A DNA stretch of 44,573 nt from Promethearchaeota archaeon. Lineage in GTDB: Archaea > Asgardarchaeota > Lokiarchaeia > Sigyniarchaeales > SOKP01. The notes below the pieces were generated by a model. The model saw only the letters and a list, made by a program, of their open reading frames with translations, was not told the origin of the DNA and did no database searches. A program made the translations under genes and the position numbers. Each line of letters opens with the position of its first letter. Position 1 is the stretch's first letter. The stretch spans positions 1 to 44,573 of the forward strand of contig SDNY01000015.1 in NCBI GenBank assembly GCA_004524535.1. The letters run 5' to 3'. Below, piece by piece: positions 10,846 to 16,228 of the stretch.

Positions 10846-11784
10846 TTATTTAGATTGACATTCTAATTGATCTACAATTTTTTCCCAATCACGGTCTATG
10901 CGCTCTTGAATTTCTATTAAAGTTTTTTCGGAAATTCCTGCGAATCGCTTTTGTTTTGAAACATATTCAATGATAGGGAGTCTTTTTGAAGGATCAACTA
11001 ATGATTTACTTTTATTTGAGAGTGTCAAAACTCCATTTTCAATCTCATATAAAATCCAAAATCCCGTCTTTACTGCTAATCTAGCCATTTCAATGCTATC
11101 CTCTGCTAAATATCCCCATCCAGGTGGACATGGAGCAAAGATTTGTATATATTTACATCCTTCAATCGATTTTGCCTTTTTGAACTTTTCATATATATCT
11201 AAAGGCTCACTTATAGAGCAAGTTGCCACATAGGGAATTTCATGGGCTGCCATTATAGCGGGTACATTCTTCTTAAATCTTTCTTTACCAAAGGGAGTTG
11301 TAGTTGTTAATGCACCATGGGGCGTTGAAGATGACCTTTGAATTCCCGTATTCATATAAGCTTCATTATCATAACACACATATATGATATTTGAATTTCT
11401 TTCGGCAGCTCCACTTAATCCTTGAATCCCAATATCTGTAGTGCCTCCATCTCCTGCAAAACAAATAGAAACCATTTCATTCCATCCCTGTCCTGGAAAC
11501 TTATAATCTTTTGCTTTAAAAGCAGCAGCAACTCCTGTAGCTGCTGCAGCTCCTGCTGCAAATGCCATATTAAACTGAGAAAATTTAGGTGCTGTTTTTG
11601 GCCATAACCCTATTACTACGTTTAAGCAACTTGCGGGGGTTATCATAGCAGTTTTTGGTCCTAAAGCTTTCATCGCCCATCGAAGTGCAATTTCAAGTCC
11701 ACATCCTGCGCAACAAGAATTGCCGGGTAAAAACCATTCTTGACGAGCTATCTCATCATCAATTACATTTTTCAAAGCTACCAT
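10846..11784 (-). CDS. porB: 2-oxoacid:ferredoxin oxidoreductase beta subunit (POR/VOR type)
   Basis: CAGCG, GDGG...YDNEAYMNTG TPP motif, PCPPGW; start set at ATG 11784 behind GGAGGTGA. Confidence 0.93.
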   Translation of the reverse strand: MVALKNVIDDEIARQEWFLPGNSCCAGCGLEIALRWAMKALGPKTAMITPASCLNVVIGLWPKTAPKFSQFNMAFAAGAAAATGVAAAFKAKDYKFPGQGWNEMVSICFAGDGGTTDIGIQGLSGAAERNSNIIYVCYDNEAYMNTGIQRSSSTPHGALTTTTPFGKERFKKNVPAIMAAHEIPYVATCSISEPLDIYEKFKKAKSIEGCKYIQIFAPCPPGWGYLAEDSIEMARLAVKTGFWILYEIENGVLTLSNKSKSLVDPSKRLPIIEYVSKQKRFAGISEKTLIEIQERIDRDWEKIVDQLECQSK

Positions 11785-11786
11785 TT

Positions 11787-13046
11787 TTACTTCACCTCCA
11801 ATAAACCATCCCAATATGTTCCATGAATCATATCCTTTGGGAGCTCTCCAGTCTCGTTATATTTAACCAAAAGCTTTAATTGATTCTTTTGCTGTTCAAG
11901 GGATACTTCTCTTCCTCCAATTCCATTCATCATGGGGAACACTTTTGCAGTTCCTTCAATATCATGTAATGCAGTTTTAACTTCACAAGAAACTGGACCT
12001 CCTGTCTGAGAACCAAATGCTATACCTCGATCAACCACTCCGAGGACTTTTACCTTTTTACCGAGCTTTATAATCTCTTCTGTGGGAAAGGGTCTAAAAT
12101 GCCTCAATTTAACCATTCCAACTTTATATCCTTCTTCTCTAACTTGATCTACAGCTTCTTCCATTTGTAGGGCTAAATCTCCATAGGTCAGCATTGCTAC
12201 TTCAGCATTATCCATATTATATTCTTGAATTAACCCATTTCCATAGCTTCTCCCGAAAACTTTTTCAAATTCCTTTGTAGCGTTTTTAATTTTCTCTTTA
12301 GCTTCCAATAGAGCAATATGCAATTTCATCCGAAATTCAGAATAAAAACCGGAAGGCATTATGAGATTTCCATGCATAATAGGTCTTTCAGGATCTACCC
12401 AAATGTGGGGCCAACCTTTCTCATCCGGAAGATCAGGTAAAAAACTATCGACCTTATCTTGATCTTCAATTATAACTGGTTTAGATGTATGAGATAATAT
12501 GAAACCTCCATAAGCAACAAATTTGGGTAAGAGAACATCATAATCTTCACATACTTTATAGGACATCAGGATCTCATCATATATTTCTTGATGAGTGGCA
12601 CAGAAAGAACTCATCCATCCAGTATCTCGACAACTAATAACATCTGAAAAATCTGCCCAGATATTCCAAGGTGGTGCTGTTCCTCTCGAAACAATTGCTG
12701 TTACGATTGGCAACCTAACTCCTGCTGCCCAATGAATCATTTCATACATATAAAAAAGTCCTTGACCACATGTAGCTGTGAAAGTCCGAGTTCCTGCCAT
12801 ACTAGCGCCAATTGTAGCTGCCATTACAGAATGCTCACTTTCCATTTTAATATATTGTGTTCCTGGCATGTATCCTCCATCAACAAATTCAGATAGTTTT
12901 TCTACTACTGTTGTTTGAGGTGTAATCGGGTAAGCAGAAATAACTTGGACTCTTGCAGATTTTGCAGCATTTGCAGCCGCAACATTTCCTTTAATAATCT
13001 GTGTTTCCTTATTCTGTACAAAATCAGTTAATTCAACTTTAGTCAT
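11787..13046 (-). CDS. porA: 2-oxoacid:ferredoxin oxidoreductase alpha subunit
   Basis: AYPITPQT, MESEHS, FRPFP, GIGGR. Confidence 0.95.
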   Translation of the reverse strand: MTKVELTDFVQNKETQIIKGNVAAANAAKSARVQVISAYPITPQTTVVEKLSEFVDGGYMPGTQYIKMESEHSVMAATIGASMAGTRTFTATCGQGLFYMYEMIHWAAGVRLPIVTAIVSRGTAPPWNIWADFSDVISCRDTGWMSSFCATHQEIYDEILMSYKVCEDYDVLLPKFVAYGGFILSHTSKPVIIEDQDKVDSFLPDLPDEKGWPHIWVDPERPIMHGNLIMPSGFYSEFRMKLHIALLEAKEKIKNATKEFEKVFGRSYGNGLIQEYNMDNAEVAMLTYGDLALQMEEAVDQVREEGYKVGMVKLRHFRPFPTEEIIKLGKKVKVLGVVDRGIAFGSQTGGPVSCEVKTALHDIEGTAKVFPMMNGIGGREVSLEQQKNQLKLLVKYNETGELPKDMIHGTYWDGLLEVK

Positions 13047-13390
13047 TTTTTAATATCACTCTCCCTTACCATTTTAATGTTATTTGTAGGACATTCCTTT
13101 GCACATATCCCACAACCTTTACAATATATTAAATCAATTTGAAAAGAACCATCCTCTTGTTTTGAGATTGTTCCTTCAGGACAATACATCCAACAGAATC
13201 CACATTTATTACACCCTTCTTGATCAATTACAGGTCTAAATGTTCTCCAATCACCTGTAGTACCTATTGAACCGTCTATAGGTAGTGATATAGGGATTGG
13301 AGGTAATTCTTCCCAACAAGAATATTCTTGTACCTTTGGGCGTTCTTCTCTTGATTTATTAATATTTTTCCATTTTTTAGTATCCGCCAT
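13043..13390 (-). CDS. porD: 2-oxoacid:ferredoxin oxidoreductase delta subunit
   Basis: TGDWRTFRP; two CxxCxxCxxxCP motifs. Confidence 0.95.
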   Translation of the reverse strand: MADTKKWKNINKSREERPKVQEYSCWEELPPIPISLPIDGSIGTTGDWRTFRPVIDQEGCNKCGFCWMYCPEGTISKQEDGSFQIDLIYCKGCGICAKECPTNNIKMVRESDIKK

Positions 13391-13393
13391 TTT

Positions 13394-13975
13394 TTAACCC
13401 TCCTTAACAGATTCGTAAGCATCACGGGCAACTCTCATATTTTTTTCCAATCTATTTTCCCCAAAATTCTTCTTTAATACTTTTTCCATAACGTCTAAAC
13501 CATAATATCCTGAAACTTTTCCAAATGCTCCTAACATCGGAATATTCAAAATTGGTCCGCTAGAATGCATAAAACTTCTCTTAATGCAGATACCCGTAGC
13601 ATCAACAATAAAGACTTTCACATTATCAGGGAATTTACTTTTATCTAATGGAGCCACACTATCAGCTATAACAATAACTCCCTCTTTTATCGTGGCTAAG
13701 ACTCGTGGAATATCTAAAAGAGAAATATCAAAGATTAACATATAATCTGGATCCTTAACACTATCATAAGTCCTAATTGGTTTGTTTTTAGAAATTTTAG
13801 TAAACGCTAAAATAGGAGCACCCCTTCTTTCCGCTCCTATTATAGGAATTGCTATCGTATCTTTAAATCCTTCTTCATAGGCACACTCTGCTAATAATTG
13901 GCTTCCAGTAACAGATGTCTGTCCACCTCGCCCATGAAAAGTTATTTCCACGATATCCTTTTCAACTTTCTCCAT
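13394..13975 (-). CDS. porG: 2-oxoacid:ferredoxin oxidoreductase gamma subunit
   Basis: HGRGGQ, GAERRGAP, VDATGI, NIPMLGA. Confidence 0.95.
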   Translation of the reverse strand: MEKVEKDIVEITFHGRGGQTSVTGSQLLAECAYEEGFKDTIAIPIIGAERRGAPILAFTKISKNKPIRTYDSVKDPDYMLIFDISLLDIPRVLATIKEGVIVIADSVAPLDKSKFPDNVKVFIVDATGICIKRSFMHSSGPILNIPMLGAFGKVSGYYGLDVMEKVLKKNFGENRLEKNMRVARDAYESVKEG

Positions 13976-14026
13976 GTTTCATCAATTTTTCATTCTTTTT
14001 TGATTTTTGTTTATTTAATCACCATT

Positions 14027-14070
14027 GCAACCAACAAAAACGCAGAGAAGAAGTTTTTATTGTTTGCGTT
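14027..14070 (-). promoter_or_regulatory. Leader hairpin with a mutually exclusive alternative stem (candidate attenuator RNA)
   Basis: Minus strand: GCAAACAAUAAAAAC (14067-14053) pairs with GUUUUUGUUGGUUGC (14041-14027) at 14 of 15 positions; alternative AACGCA/UGCGUU stem overlaps the leader stop codon. Confidence 0.5.
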
Positions 14071-14167
14071 ATAAAATTAAGACTACTAATACTACTAATA
14101 GTAAAATGAATAACGATAATATAGAGTTTGGAATTAATAAATAATTTTTTTTTTTCATATCTCGCAT
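14069..14167 (-). CDS. 32-aa Ile/Leu/Val-rich upstream ORF (candidate leader peptide or micro membrane protein)
   Basis: MRDMKKKNYLLIPNSILSLFILLLVVLVVLIL*; GGGA upstream of the ATG; same strand as and 93 nt ahead of porG; below the ORF-track size cutoff. Confidence 0.5.
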   Translation of the reverse strand: MRDMKKKNYLLIPNSILSLFILLLVVLVVLIL

Positions 14168-14392
14168 AATTTCCCAACTTTATATTATTTCTTTAGAAAA
14201 GTATTAATGCAGTATTATCTATGTTAAAAAGCGGATACTATTAAAAATTTTCGGATAAAGTTATTAATTTAGTACTTTAAAAACTTTATAGATATTAAAT
14301 TAACTTTAAAAAAATAAATTTTTTTGATTATTAAAAAAAAAATAATAACATATTATCCTTTGATTACATAACTAAGACTTTAATTTTTCACA

Positions 14393-14971
14393 ATGCAAGA
14401 AAAGAATAGAAATACAGAGGAAAAACTTACGAATTTTAAATGTCCAGCATGTAAAGACGGCGACATTGTAATTAAGAAGATTATCTACGACCTTCCAGAT
14501 AAGGATAAAATGCTAATTTTAAAATTTAAATGTAATAGATGTGATTTTGAAAATAATGATATTATCCCTTTAACCACTAGAATGGATGCTGGTATTATAA
14601 CTTTAAAAATCACTGAAGAAAACGATCTTAAATCTAAAATATATCGTTCTCCGACAGGAAATTTAGAAATCCCTGAATTGGAGTTAAAAGTAGAACCTGG
14701 GCCGAGTGCTGAATTTTATTATACTAATGTAGAAGGAATATTACTCAGATTTGAGCGAGCTGTTTCAATCTATCTAGATAATCTTGAAGATGCTAATCCA
14801 GAAAAAAGCGAAATAAAAGATACTTTAAAAGATTTACAAAAAGCCATGAAAGGACAACTTGAATTTACTTTAAAAATTGCAGATCCTAGCGGAGGGAGTT
14901 ATATAATCCCCGAAGATAGGTCAAAATATACTTTTAAAAAAATTGAAAATTTTGAAATAAATAAAGAATAA
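14393..14971 (+). CDS. ZPR1-type zinc finger protein
   Basis: CPAC...CNRC, LEIPELELKVEPGP, TNVEGIL, FTLKIADPSGGSYI. Confidence 0.92.
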   Translation: MQEKNRNTEEKLTNFKCPACKDGDIVIKKIIYDLPDKDKMLILKFKCNRCDFENNDIIPLTTRMDAGIITLKITEENDLKSKIYRSPTGNLEIPELELKVEPGPSAEFYYTNVEGILLRFERAVSIYLDNLEDANPEKSEIKDTLKDLQKAMKGQLEFTLKIADPSGGSYIIPEDRSKYTFKKIENFEINKE

Positions 14972-15051: not shown

Positions 15052-16228
15052 ATGACAATTAAAAAAGTTGGAATTTTAACGGGCGGCGGAGCCATATTCA
15101 AGATTCTCCTTGATTGCCGTATACTGCCCTGGCTTAAATTCTGTATTATATGGTATCATGCTTAAAGCTTTTGATGCCGGTGTTGAATGCGTTGGAATTC
15201 TTAAAGGATGGAAAGGATTTTTAGAAAATCTGACAATACCACTTAATATTGCTGAACATGATGACCTTCATACCATAGGTGGTACTATTCTCTATACAAG
15301 CAGAACTAATCCTTTTAAAGGCGTTGAATCAAAAGAAGAAAAAGCAAAAGAAATTGCTGCTAAATTTGATGAGTTAGGTATCGATGCTCTAATATGTATA
15401 GGAGGAGATGATACATTAGGAGTGGCAGATTTGATGTATAAGCATGCAAATGCGAAGGTTGTTGGCTGCCCAAAAACGATTGATAATGATCTAGCGGGCA
15501 CCCATTACACTTTTGGATTTTGGAGCGCAGTTCAATTAGCATCGGATGCAATGGATAATTTAACAACCACCGCACGATCACATCAAAGAGTTTTTATTGT
15601 AGAAGTTATGGGACGTGATGCTGGATTTCTTACGATTTATAGTGGAATTTCGAGTGGTGCAGATATCATCTTAATCCCAGAGACCCCATTCAGTTTAGAA
15701 AGAGATGTTATCGAAGTTCTTAAAAAGAGAGTTAAAGCAGGGTATAAATATCACATTATTGCGTGCTCTGAAGGTGCTTATCCGGATAAAGATTCGCTTA
15801 AACGAGACTTTAAGACAATTACCCAAGAGACAATTGATAAATTACCAAAAGATACGTTTGGAAATCCTGTATTGCCTGCCCTAAATATGTCTCAAGTCCT
15901 TGTCGATGAATTGAATCTAAGAGATGATTTAAAAGAGGAATTTCAAGAGAATGGTGTGGATTTTGAAATACGAAGCGTTGTATTAGGACATACAATGAGA
16001 GCAGGACACCCGATTTCATTTGATCGAATTTTAGGATTACGATTTGGTTTAGCAGCTATGAAACTCGTGTTGAAAGAGGATTTCGGTAAAATGGTTTCCC
16101 TCCAAGGGAATCAAATTACTACCTTCCCACTCGATGAAGGTGTTAAAAAGAAATATTTAACTCCTGATAATGATAAAATGGAACTCCGGGATTTATTGGT
16201 AAAAATTCGCTATTTATCAAAGCAATAA
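15052..16228 (+). CDS. pfkA: 6-phosphofructokinase (PfkA family, likely PPi-dependent), split: join(15052..15091,15123..16228), 381 aa
   Basis: ATG 15052 gives MTIKKVGILTGGG; removing 15092-15122 yields ...GGGDCPGLNSVL, continuous with the 15110..16228 frame (GGTILYTSR, IGGDDT, PKTIDND, EVMGR, LGH). GGDD plus PKTIDND is the PPi-type signature. Confidence 0.93.
15092..15122 (+). other. 31-nt bulge-helix-bulge (BHB) intron in pfk mRNA (candidate)
   Basis: 4-bp central helix GCGG(15086-89)/CCGU(15117-20); 3-nt bulges AG^C (15090-92) and AU^A (15121-23); inner stem UCAAG/CUUGA; outer exon-exon stem GGGCG/CUGCCC. Cuts after the 2nd bulge nucleotide restore frame and motif. Confidence 0.85.

Follow-up and report, generated by a model that had tools for sequence, protein, structure and literature searches.

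The leaders of the enterobacterial ilvGMEDA, ilvBN, and leu operons are ribosome-mediated attenuators, and the dependence of leader-peptide attenuation on ribosomes close behind RNA polymerase is textbook knowledge for bacteria. In the pyrBI operon of Escherichia coli, a leader-translating ribosome that follows the polymerase closely blocks the terminator hairpin. Small single-pass membrane proteins, such as KdpF and AcrZ, are likewise found at the heads of operons. This work concerns a short open reading frame (sORF) of an Asgard archaeon that resembles both kinds of element. It ends in Ile, Leu, and Val codons and lies upstream of a 2-oxoacid:ferredoxin oxidoreductase operon on a Lokiarchaeal contig of 44,573 nucleotides (nt), the whole of which is referred to here as the window. 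Branched-chain attenuators are described for ilvBNC of Corynebacterium (PMC11857589) and as a Leu-rich attenuator peptide in Staphylococcus aureus (PMC5794164). Two further papers present the general principle that coupled ribosomes keep terminator hairpins from forming (PMC5021804) and a survey of prokaryotic small membrane proteins (PMC10903887). A search of the open-access literature for archaeal leader-peptide attenuation gave, among the matches listed, bacterial examples only; none was found on an Asgard leader ORF, and none tied Lokiarchaeia to the pathway considered here. To our knowledge, there is no established archaeal case.

The window is contig C40 of a genome of 3.66 Mb (G000; 30.4% G+C, 99% complete). 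The initial annotation claimed a minus-strand ORF with 12 terminal Ile/Leu/Val codons 93 nt ahead of porG, and both coordinates and translation confirm it: the stop codon occupies positions 14069-14071, and the porG ATG is at 13975. The oxidoreductase, a four-subunit member of the POR/VOR family according to Pfam and NCBIfam, is encoded in the order gamma-delta-alpha-beta. The sORF, its predicted RNA hairpins, and the operon are arranged as follows.

14176..14189, minus strand: 5' arm of hairpin A (AATAATATAAAGTT), complementary in reverse to sORF codons 14-18 and separated by 8 nt from the sORF start
14069..14167, minus strand: leader sORF, 32 codons plus TAA, reading MRDMKKKNYLLIPNSILSLFILLLVVLVVLIL up to the stop
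14115..14128, minus strand: hairpin A, 3' arm (AACTCTATATTATC; codons Asn-Ser-Ile-Leu-Ser), pairing with the block upstream of the start codon
14072..14107, minus strand: the 12 consecutive Ile/Leu/Val codons that precede the stop (translation)
14090..14103, minus strand: hairpin M (TACTA..TAGTA), inside the Ile/Leu/Val run, from per-sequence folds and weak for the window copy (z -1.2)
14027..14067, minus strand: hairpin B (GCAAACAATAAAAAC, loop, GTTTTTGTTGGTTGC), beginning 1 nt past the stop; the 3' arm contains a U5 tract (folds and covariation)
13394..13975, minus strand: gamma subunit of the 2-oxoacid:ferredoxin oxidoreductase (porG/porC-type; PF01558, TIGR02175)
13043..13390, minus strand: delta subunit, 2x[4Fe-4S] (TIGR02179)
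11787..13046, minus strand: alpha subunit (PF01855/PF17147)
10846..11814, minus strand: beta subunit, thiamine pyrophosphate-binding (VOR beta and PorB model scores)

We hold with moderate confidence that the sORF and the structured 5' leader RNA of ~165 nt form a cis-regulatory module that is found before two operons, the second of which encodes an acyl-CoA mutase. Whether the sORF is a translated regulatory leader that couples expression of the operon to the supply of Ile, Leu, and Val is evenly balanced in our judgment. Its translation, its co-transcription with the operon, the role of hairpin B, the direction in which regulation runs, and the nature of the signal are all inferred. Under a model of independent, identically distributed residues with the six-frame Ile/Leu/Val frequency of this genome (0.25), 0.33 runs of at least 12 such codons are expected in the whole 3.66-Mb genome and 1.2e-4 within the 417-nt spacer that holds the sORF. 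Genome-wide, 15 such runs are observed, mainly in simple repeats or membrane proteins. Conservation in relatives is a stronger argument against chance than these run-length statistics.

Orthologues of porG are present in 40 of 40 relatives, and of the 29 loci retrieved in addition to that of the window, 17 carry an ORF of 30-38 codons within the 700 nt scanned upstream of porG. Its product ends, for example, in QVVVLIL, RVVVIL, or IILIL directly before the stop. The distance from the end of the sORF to porG is 79-95 nt (18 copies measured), and that to the mutase gene is 45-150 nt. The best DNA patterns recovered just 8-12 of 21 known copies, so that a covariance model of the module, built from 19 copies, was used for the collection scan instead. 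This model finds the module in 18 of 40 genomes. Besides G000, 23 of these belong to the same family, and 17 of them have it; the 16 genomes that represent three further families of the order have none. A second sample gives 17 of 31 family genomes, or 8 of 13 genera. The covariance search scored part of the first-look candidates, and weak copies may be missed. The resulting set consists of 27 copies of 27-36 codons each, from 22 genomes of one Lokiarchaeal family: 21 precede porG, 5 precede an acyl-CoA mutase gene, and 1 (in G045) precedes an unidentified gene. Thus, comparison of the upstream regions of orthologous operons, a check proposed in the initial annotation, reveals a conserved, frame-preserved sORF that is present in relatives.

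The sORF product has no real match in Pfam, NCBIfam, or PADLOC; Pfam searches return single-member matches only, with E values of 0.05-0.09. A profile search of 1.84 billion protein representatives gives 7 matches, all to the same sORF and none in a named family. One of the database proteins, P0002 (103 residues), contains the sORF sequence (..QVVVIL) and continues beyond the usual stop into the hairpin-B region; its stop codon has been lost, or else the gene was miscalled. At gathering thresholds, the window has no Rfam match, and in E-value mode, the sole match to positions 13950-14400 is BsrC, at 22.5 bits, under its 38-bit cut-off.

The reading frame is open in all 27 copies; mononucleotide shuffles leave it open in 2-11% of the trials per sequence (21 copies tested). 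The start codon column is conserved (ATG in 23 copies, TTG in 3, and GTG in 1). Block ii, which encodes the conserved Asn-Ser/Phe-Ile-Leu, lies at a distance of 36, 39, or 42 nt from the start codon in every one of the 27 copies. In the 22 of 22 copies not linked to the mutase, 54, 57, 60, 63, 66, or 69 nt, always a multiple of 3, separate it from the stop. The five mutase-linked copies have the stop in another alignment column, with intact frames. Pairwise ratios of nonsynonymous to synonymous differences (pN/pS) are mostly 0.6-1 (19 pairs), suggesting that the peptide sequence is barely constrained. The numbers of differences at codon positions 1, 2, and 3 are 3096, 2231, and 2749, respectively; the second position is the least changed, as expected if the NUN codon class is under selection. 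The U in this position shows a 3-nt periodicity and is kept across 12-19 consecutive codons, most of them outside the predicted helices. The open frames, the conserved start column, the measured length differences, all of them multiples of 3, and this periodicity argue against a purely non-coding structured RNA, either a 5' untranslated region element or a small RNA, in which the frame would be incidental. Such an RNA would agree with the covariation of hairpins A and B and with the conservation of blocks at the nucleotide level; we consider it very improbable. An overlapping 52-codon ORF with a TTG start (14019-14177, in another frame) is retained in the closest relatives only and is not considered real.

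The C-terminal part of the peptide has an unusual composition. Its last 19 residues were compared over the 27 copies with 1963 hydrophobic 19-mers from long ORFs of the same genome, a set selected by a crude hydropathy filter, which weakens the statistics, as does the kinship of the copies. Ile, Leu, and Val together make up 78.9% of the tails versus 53.2% of the genomic segments, with Val alone at 22.0% versus 8.7%. The other hydrophobic residues are correspondingly rare: Phe accounts for 3.3% versus 12.4%, Met for 0.6% versus 2.7%, and Ala plus Gly for 1.2% versus 12.5%. Free substitution by Ala, Phe, or Gly, which the initial annotation named as evidence against an Ile/Leu/Val-sensing leader, is therefore not what these tails display. 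The Ile/Leu/Val content of 24 of the 27 tails equals or exceeds the 99th percentile of the genomic segments, and 150 of the 162 residues in the last six positions are Ile, Leu, or Val. The longest uninterrupted run varies from 4 to 12 and reaches 12 in only 3 copies. Most copies have a polar codon (Gln, Arg, Asp, or Glu/His) in the middle of the stretch. The window copy and its nearest relative are atypical in having none, and their runs reach 12 because no polar codon interrupts them.

These features bear on an alternative that was already raised in the initial annotation, namely, that the sORF encodes a micro membrane protein. It would be a small single-pass membrane protein with its own promoter and with hairpin B as its terminator; the operons would have promoters of their own, and the linkage would reflect inherited synteny or loose co-regulation. 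Like KdpF and AcrZ, the peptide has ~30 residues, a charged N terminus, a hydrophobic C-terminal stretch, and a place at the operon start. Its Lys/Arg/Asn-rich N terminus is followed by 14-23 hydrophobic residues, and the uninterrupted 18-residue stretch of the window copy would qualify as a membrane helix. Interchange among Ile, Leu, and Val is nonsynonymous, so that a pN/pS near 1 is compatible with a conserved helix. The hairpin with T4-T8 right past the stop resembles the gene ends of G000, the stretch that separates hairpin B from porG contains a TATA-like box, and no antiterminator pairing was found. Unlike KdpF- and AcrZ-type proteins, however, the peptide has no membrane complex encoded downstream, its composition is far from that of the hydrophobic segments of its genome, it has charged residues inside the stretch, and its coding sequence is dominated by RNA-structure constraints. 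One copy has just 14 hydrophobic residues after an Asn. Both downstream operons encode soluble enzymes and offer no membrane partner; moreover, the whole module is duplicated in the same orientation before the second operon, and the tails of a second sORF family, described below, with their 10-14 residues cannot span a membrane. The membrane protein alternative, the chief competitor of the leader reading, is weakened and appears unlikely.

Hairpin A encloses the start region of the sORF. Helix A, which is absent from the model that made the alignment, is 85.4% paired over the 27 copies versus 36-59% in slid controls and contains 6 pairs changed on both sides. Two of these are independent changes from U-A to C-G, seen in the por-linked and mutase-linked copies of one genus. 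Hairpin B is located 1 nt past the stop in 18 of 27 copies and at most 6 nt past it in all 27. It folds in 19 of 19 tested copies, with free energies of -11.5 to -18.6 kcal/mol and z scores of -2.4 to -6.2. Helix B is 88.7% paired and has 7 pairs changed on both sides, counts that lean towards structure, as this helix was fitted by the model; its outer stem is wholly swapped in some lineages, e.g., to ACTAC/GTAGT. Counts of G.U and A.C are 47 and 9 in helix B and 16 and 20 in helix A; the excess of G.U in the former points to hairpin B as a sense-strand RNA. In the 27-row alignment as a whole, 86.7% of cells are paired versus 40-56% with slid partners, and 14 pairs are changed on both sides versus 8.3 +- 1.7 in shuffles (2 of 500 reach 14). 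The respective values for cells changed on both sides are 51 versus 14.1 +- 3.5 (0 of 500 shuffles) and for the covariation score 0.238 versus 0.124 (0 of 500). RNAalifold detected no structure in the first MAFFT alignment, and the hairpins emerged with per-sequence folds and the model-based alignment.

Hairpin M, within the Ile/Leu/Val stretch, has a mean z score of -1.5 in per-sequence folds. In many copies, a GTAGTA segment pairs here with an upstream segment of the TAC type; the stems in relatives differ in sequence and often include a CAA or CGA (Gln or Arg) codon. This pairing would explain the polar residue and part of the preference for GTA, which is used in 107 of 134 Val codons versus 34% genome-wide. 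As the polar codons often pair in hairpin M, RNA structure appears to override the hydrophobic continuity of the peptide. With default settings, aragorn finds 9 tRNAs only in the whole genome, too few to judge tRNA-Val(UAC).

The same pairing features would also suit a translated regulatory leader that responds to a signal other than branched-chain supply. Translation would unzip hairpins A and M or report general translational capacity, and the bias towards Ile, Leu, and Val would arise secondarily from a need for U-rich pairing codons in an AT-rich genome. The conserved Asn-Ser/Phe-Ile-Leu codons coincide with the 3' arm of hairpin A, the GTA Val and Gln/Arg codons take part in hairpin M, the GTA preference points to a constraint at the nucleotide level, and the second sORF family has a comparable Thr/Val codon pairing. 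Nevertheless, U at codon position 2 is kept mostly outside the predicted helices, and Phe (TTT), the commonest U-rich codon class in the hydrophobic segments of the genome, is avoided. Furthermore, the 2-oxoacid oxidoreductase, the isobutyryl-CoA mutase-like enzyme, and the leucine-tRNA ligase next to one copy of the second family all touch branched-chain amino acid metabolism. We rate a different signal as quite improbable.

The U-run in hairpin B has at least 5 residues in 19 of the 27 copies, 4 in 6 copies, and 2-3 in 2 copies. Runs of T5 or longer are depleted in the genes of G000 (3.4 per kb) and enriched after stop codons (10 per kb); the U-tract could therefore represent an archaeal termination signal. 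If the sORF is a branched-chain-sensing leader, a ribosome that moves quickly through the Ile/Leu/Val codons would reach the stop and cover the 5' arm of hairpin B. A ribosome slowed or stalled in the 12- to 19-codon stretch by scarcity of charged tRNA would leave hairpin B free to fold. The folded hairpin, with its U-tract in most copies, would then favor termination of transcription or silence the downstream message in some other way. An ample supply of branched-chain amino acids would thus turn the operons on, and scarcity would turn them off, a logic that suits enzymes burning 2-oxoacids and branched acyl-CoAs.

The module shares several features with the bacterial ilv/leu attenuators: an ORF of ~30 codons upstream of the operon in the same sense, dense Ile/Leu/Val codons with few polar interruptions, a peptide that drifts while its codon class is kept, and an RNA hairpin between the leader and the first gene. 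It differs from them in its Asgard archaeal host, in Ile/Leu/Val codons that reach the stop and a stop that abuts the hairpin, in the lack of a detected mutually exclusive antiterminator pairing, and in a U-tract that lies inside a hairpin arm and not after it. In addition, its targets look catabolic or central (the oxidoreductase and the acyl-CoA mutase) rather than biosynthetic, which inverts the proposed logic, and no Rfam leader family matches the module. The proposed behavior of hairpin B, a two-state design without antiterminator in which folding is set by the position of the leading ribosome, is similar to that of pyrBI. In pyrBI, however, polymerase pausing that depends on UTP provides the signal, and the terminator lies within the leader ORF. 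In the archaeal module, 1-6 nt separate the end of the ORF from the hairpin, and charged tRNA for Ile, Leu, and Val is the signal proposed. The module may be an attenuator-like variant and is kept apart from the classical attenuators because no antiterminator was found and the terminator is atypical. The proposal of ribosome-mediated Ile/Leu/Val control thus gains from the conserved sORF, its Ile/Leu/Val-specific tail, the adjoining sense-strand hairpin, and the paralogous copy linked to the mutase, and loses from the missing antiterminator pairing.

That second copy is located on contig C113 of G000, where the whole module is repeated, including ~75 nt upstream of hairpin A (nhmmer E value, 1.9e-13), with an sORF that reads MLNEKRNRGKNHLSFILSLLVLLLVVLVLL up to the stop. 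About 150 nt past it lies a gene for a 544-residue acyl-CoA mutase large subunit, followed by those for a B12-binding subunit and MeaB. The split large subunit, the B12-binding small subunit, and the MeaB GTPase are shared with the isobutyryl-CoA/methylmalonyl-CoA mutase family that has a MeaB-type G-protein. In an alignment to solved structures (PDB 4r3u, 2xij, 1req, and 4xc6), the C113 mutase differs from methylmalonyl-CoA mutase (MCM) in having Phe at the position of Tyr89 and Gln at that of Arg207 (Propionibacterium shermanii numbering); it thus lacks both carboxylate-binding residues of MCM. The solved MCMs (human and Mycobacterium tuberculosis) have Tyr/Arg at these positions, and 2-hydroxyisobutyryl-CoA mutase has Ile/Gln. 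The Phe/Gln pair is taken here as a signature of isobutyryl-CoA mutase; on this assumption, the enzyme would be isobutyryl-CoA mutase-like, and its predicted active site fits a link to branched-chain acyl-CoA. The MCM Tyr/Arg pair is found in no mutase of G000. A second mutase paralogue (G000:C56:4939-6540; L073), 43% identical, is altered at the second site and has an atypical sequence (..WTMRLFSGHG..) in the active-site stretch.

Mutase-linked copies of the module are found in five genomes of two genera (G000, G008, G013, G040, and G047). Synteny is stable over 8 genera: the copies always stand in sense orientation before the same two operons, with no more than two per genome. This pattern argues against a type I toxin-like or selfish hydrophobic peptide gene with a structured mRNA that has come to lie beside metabolic operons by chance. 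Short hydrophobic peptides, long-range mRNA structure around the start region, the two copies in some genomes, and the small acidic ORF of unknown function that follows the second sORF family would be in line with such a gene. The sORF products, however, match nothing in PADLOC or Pfam, and no antisense partner was seen, although none was searched for; we give this explanation hardly any weight.

Isobutyryl-CoA is the product of 2-oxoisovalerate oxidation, and the por and mutase operons could therefore encode consecutive steps of valine breakdown. The initial annotation took Ile/Leu/Val control to suggest that the oxidoreductase is a VOR. The NCBIfam scores do not bear this out, as they favor POR and VOR about equally: the alpha subunit scores 401.6 bits with PorA_Arch, 363.4 with POR alpha, and 356.0 with VOR alpha, all under the equivalog cut-offs; the beta subunit scores 385.4 with VOR beta and 376.0 with PorB, both under 405; and the delta subunit scores 106.5 with VOR and 103.4 with PorD, under the cut-offs. 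A paralogue on contig C184 leans to POR by 40 bits. G000 has two genes of the dihydroxy-acid dehydratase family, one of them above the cut-off. For ketol-acid reductoisomerase (TIGR00465), the best score in this 99%-complete genome is 21.8 bits; the enzyme was not found, and the canonical branched-chain biosynthetic route may therefore be missing.

A sequence-independent scan of G000 for short frames that end in at least 7 Ile/Leu/Val among 8 residues and are followed by a hairpin yields 353 candidates. Both module copies rank high, as does a new locus on contig C106 (G000:C106:5287-5364, plus strand, equal to L075:1539-1616), whose frame reads MISKTTTSNNKLVQLLGLVVVVLLL up to the stop. This second, unrelated family (type-2) has relatives in 8 of 8 genomes searched in the genus and in another genus (L076-L081, L083, and L086). 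Its sORFs have 20-27 codons, begin with MISNTTTSN, and carry a Val/Leu tail of 10-14 hydrophobic residues, which is too short for a membrane helix. The stop is located 1-3 nt before a conserved, covarying RNA of ~110 nt, for which RNAalifold predicts 28 pairs, 7 of them changed on both sides (at one pair, CG in 5 sequences and UA in 4). In the type-2 family, ACT-ACT-AC (Thr) pairs with GTA-GTA-GT (Val). Most type-2 copies are followed by a small acidic ORF that belongs to no known family and has a strong Shine-Dalgarno sequence. A Leu-rich copy in G006 (MISNNNTKSSLGLLSLILVLLLLL up to the stop; L086:~189-263) lies ~160 nt upstream of the gene for leucine-tRNA ligase (L086:418-1806; TIGR00396, 650.9 bits versus a cut-off of 548.4), a linkage that is a single case on a contig of 1806 nt. 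Upstream of the leucine-tRNA ligase gene of G000 itself (contig C185), no Ile/Leu/Val-rich sORF is found.

Taken at its widest, the evidence would make this Lokiarchaeal family a user of ribosome-mediated leader-peptide attenuation, which would switch on a regulon for the breakdown of valine and branched-chain 2-oxoacids (from a POR/VOR-type oxidoreductase through isobutyryl-CoA to isobutyryl-CoA mutase) at times of plenty, with the type-2 family as a sign of wider use. This extended proposal is tentative, and we lean somewhat against it. If true, it would make translation-coupled control of archaeal genes open to direct test, in the prokaryotes most closely related to eukaryotes, and would provide a handle on when amino-acid-fermenting Lokiarchaeia burn amino acids. 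The linkage of the oxidoreductase with an isobutyryl-CoA mutase-like enzyme suggests a valine-to-butyrate route, and the annotation of Asgard genomes would gain two new RNA/sORF families.

Several observations weigh against attenuation by branched-chain supply. There is no conserved antiterminator pairing, and duplex energies in the 27 copies are no better than those of dinucleotide shuffles: with the 5' arm of hairpin B, the ORF tail has a mean z score of -0.24 and block ii one of -0.43. The duplex-energy test thus lends no support to a classical 1:2/2:3/3:4 switch. Hairpin B is unlike a bacterial-type terminator in that the U-run is part of its 3' arm; the two copies with a U-run of 2-3 nt only are both mutase-linked. 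The combination of sORF, hairpin, and T-run also resembles an ordinary gene end, as 47.5% of the genes have T5 or longer within 60 nt past the stop. The TATA-like box between hairpin B and porG, found in relatives ~27-36 nt ahead of the porG start codon, means that the operon may have its own promoter. The sole RNA run with any of the stretch, a metatranscriptome, contains 5% of its sequence words, and the contigs cover parts of porG and porD and none of the leader. Part of the region consists of trinucleotide-like repeats, and slippage alone favors 3n changes; together with the GTA bias, slippage and RNA pairing may explain part of the Val run and of the 3n indels. The 27 copies are related by descent within 8 genera, so that their counts overstate independence. 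The module is missing from 6 of the first 23 family genomes and from 14 of 30 in the second sample, and two genera have a start-less remnant only, showing that it is dispensable. Finally, the substrate assignment of the oxidoreductase is not settled by the NCBIfam scores, and a paralogue on contig C112 is, unlike the enzyme in the window, more VOR-like by 34-36 bits (alpha subunit, 387.8 versus 351.6).

The remnant is seen in L011 and L014 (genera g11 and g2), ~60-200 nt upstream of porG, as an open frame that ends in LNSILLFHIVVI before the stop and has no ATG, GTG, or TTG start. The loop of hairpin A is deleted, a weakened hairpin-B-like palindrome is left, and the covariance model misses both loci.

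Three further conserved elements flank the module.

14233..14250, minus strand: upstream conserved box 1 (AAATTTTTAATAG..), common to the por- and mutase-linked copies of G000 (pairwise alignment)
14201..14219, minus strand: upstream conserved box 2 (GATAATACTG..), with its center ~25-30 nt and its end ~11 nt upstream of hairpin A
13976..14026, minus strand: A-rich spacer from hairpin B to porG (block v, ..AAAAATCAAAAAAG..), conserved in relatives

Box 1 is a candidate promoter or operator element. Box 2 is a candidate TATA box/B recognition element of the leader transcript, and its position would fit a transcript that starts at hairpin A. The A-rich spacer is either a 5' untranslated region or an internal promoter. 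Histograms of k-mers were uninformative about the promoter position in this AT-rich genome. In most relatives, a motif AAGTTGG(A/G)AA, which resembles the 3' arm of hairpin B, is found 7-10 nt before the starts of the sORF and porG; it is lost before porG in the window (positions compared, 13976-14026 and 14168-14180). As a lineage-specific Shine-Dalgarno sequence, GTTGG was rejected: it is barely enriched (14 versus 6.3 expected), and the enriched motif of the genome is the canonical GGAGGTGA. The 16S gene, on contig C76, lacks its 3' end.

In the C112 paralogue of the oxidoreductase (G000:C112:14441-23500; L061 and L064), a gamma-like gene is separated by ~4.5 kb from delta-alpha-beta and lies beyond the gene for a 1297-residue PAS-rich histidine kinase. 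The leucine-tRNA ligase of G000 (L087, G000:C185:12809-16795) is of the bacterial type, as its family model matches the 10 bacterial control genomes and none of the 4 archaeal controls. The gene is split into two neighboring frames of 552 and 287 residues and lies just downstream of a 375-residue ORF that presumably carries a LAGLIDADG-like motif.

On the other side of the module, the window contains two genes in the divergent orientation.

14393-14971, plus strand: ZPR1-type zinc-finger protein
15110-16228, plus strand: phosphofructokinase-family gene, after the ZPR1-type gene

Fragments of the ZPR1 gene, in antisense orientation, recur upstream of the module in several loci of the same genus (L002, L003, and L018).

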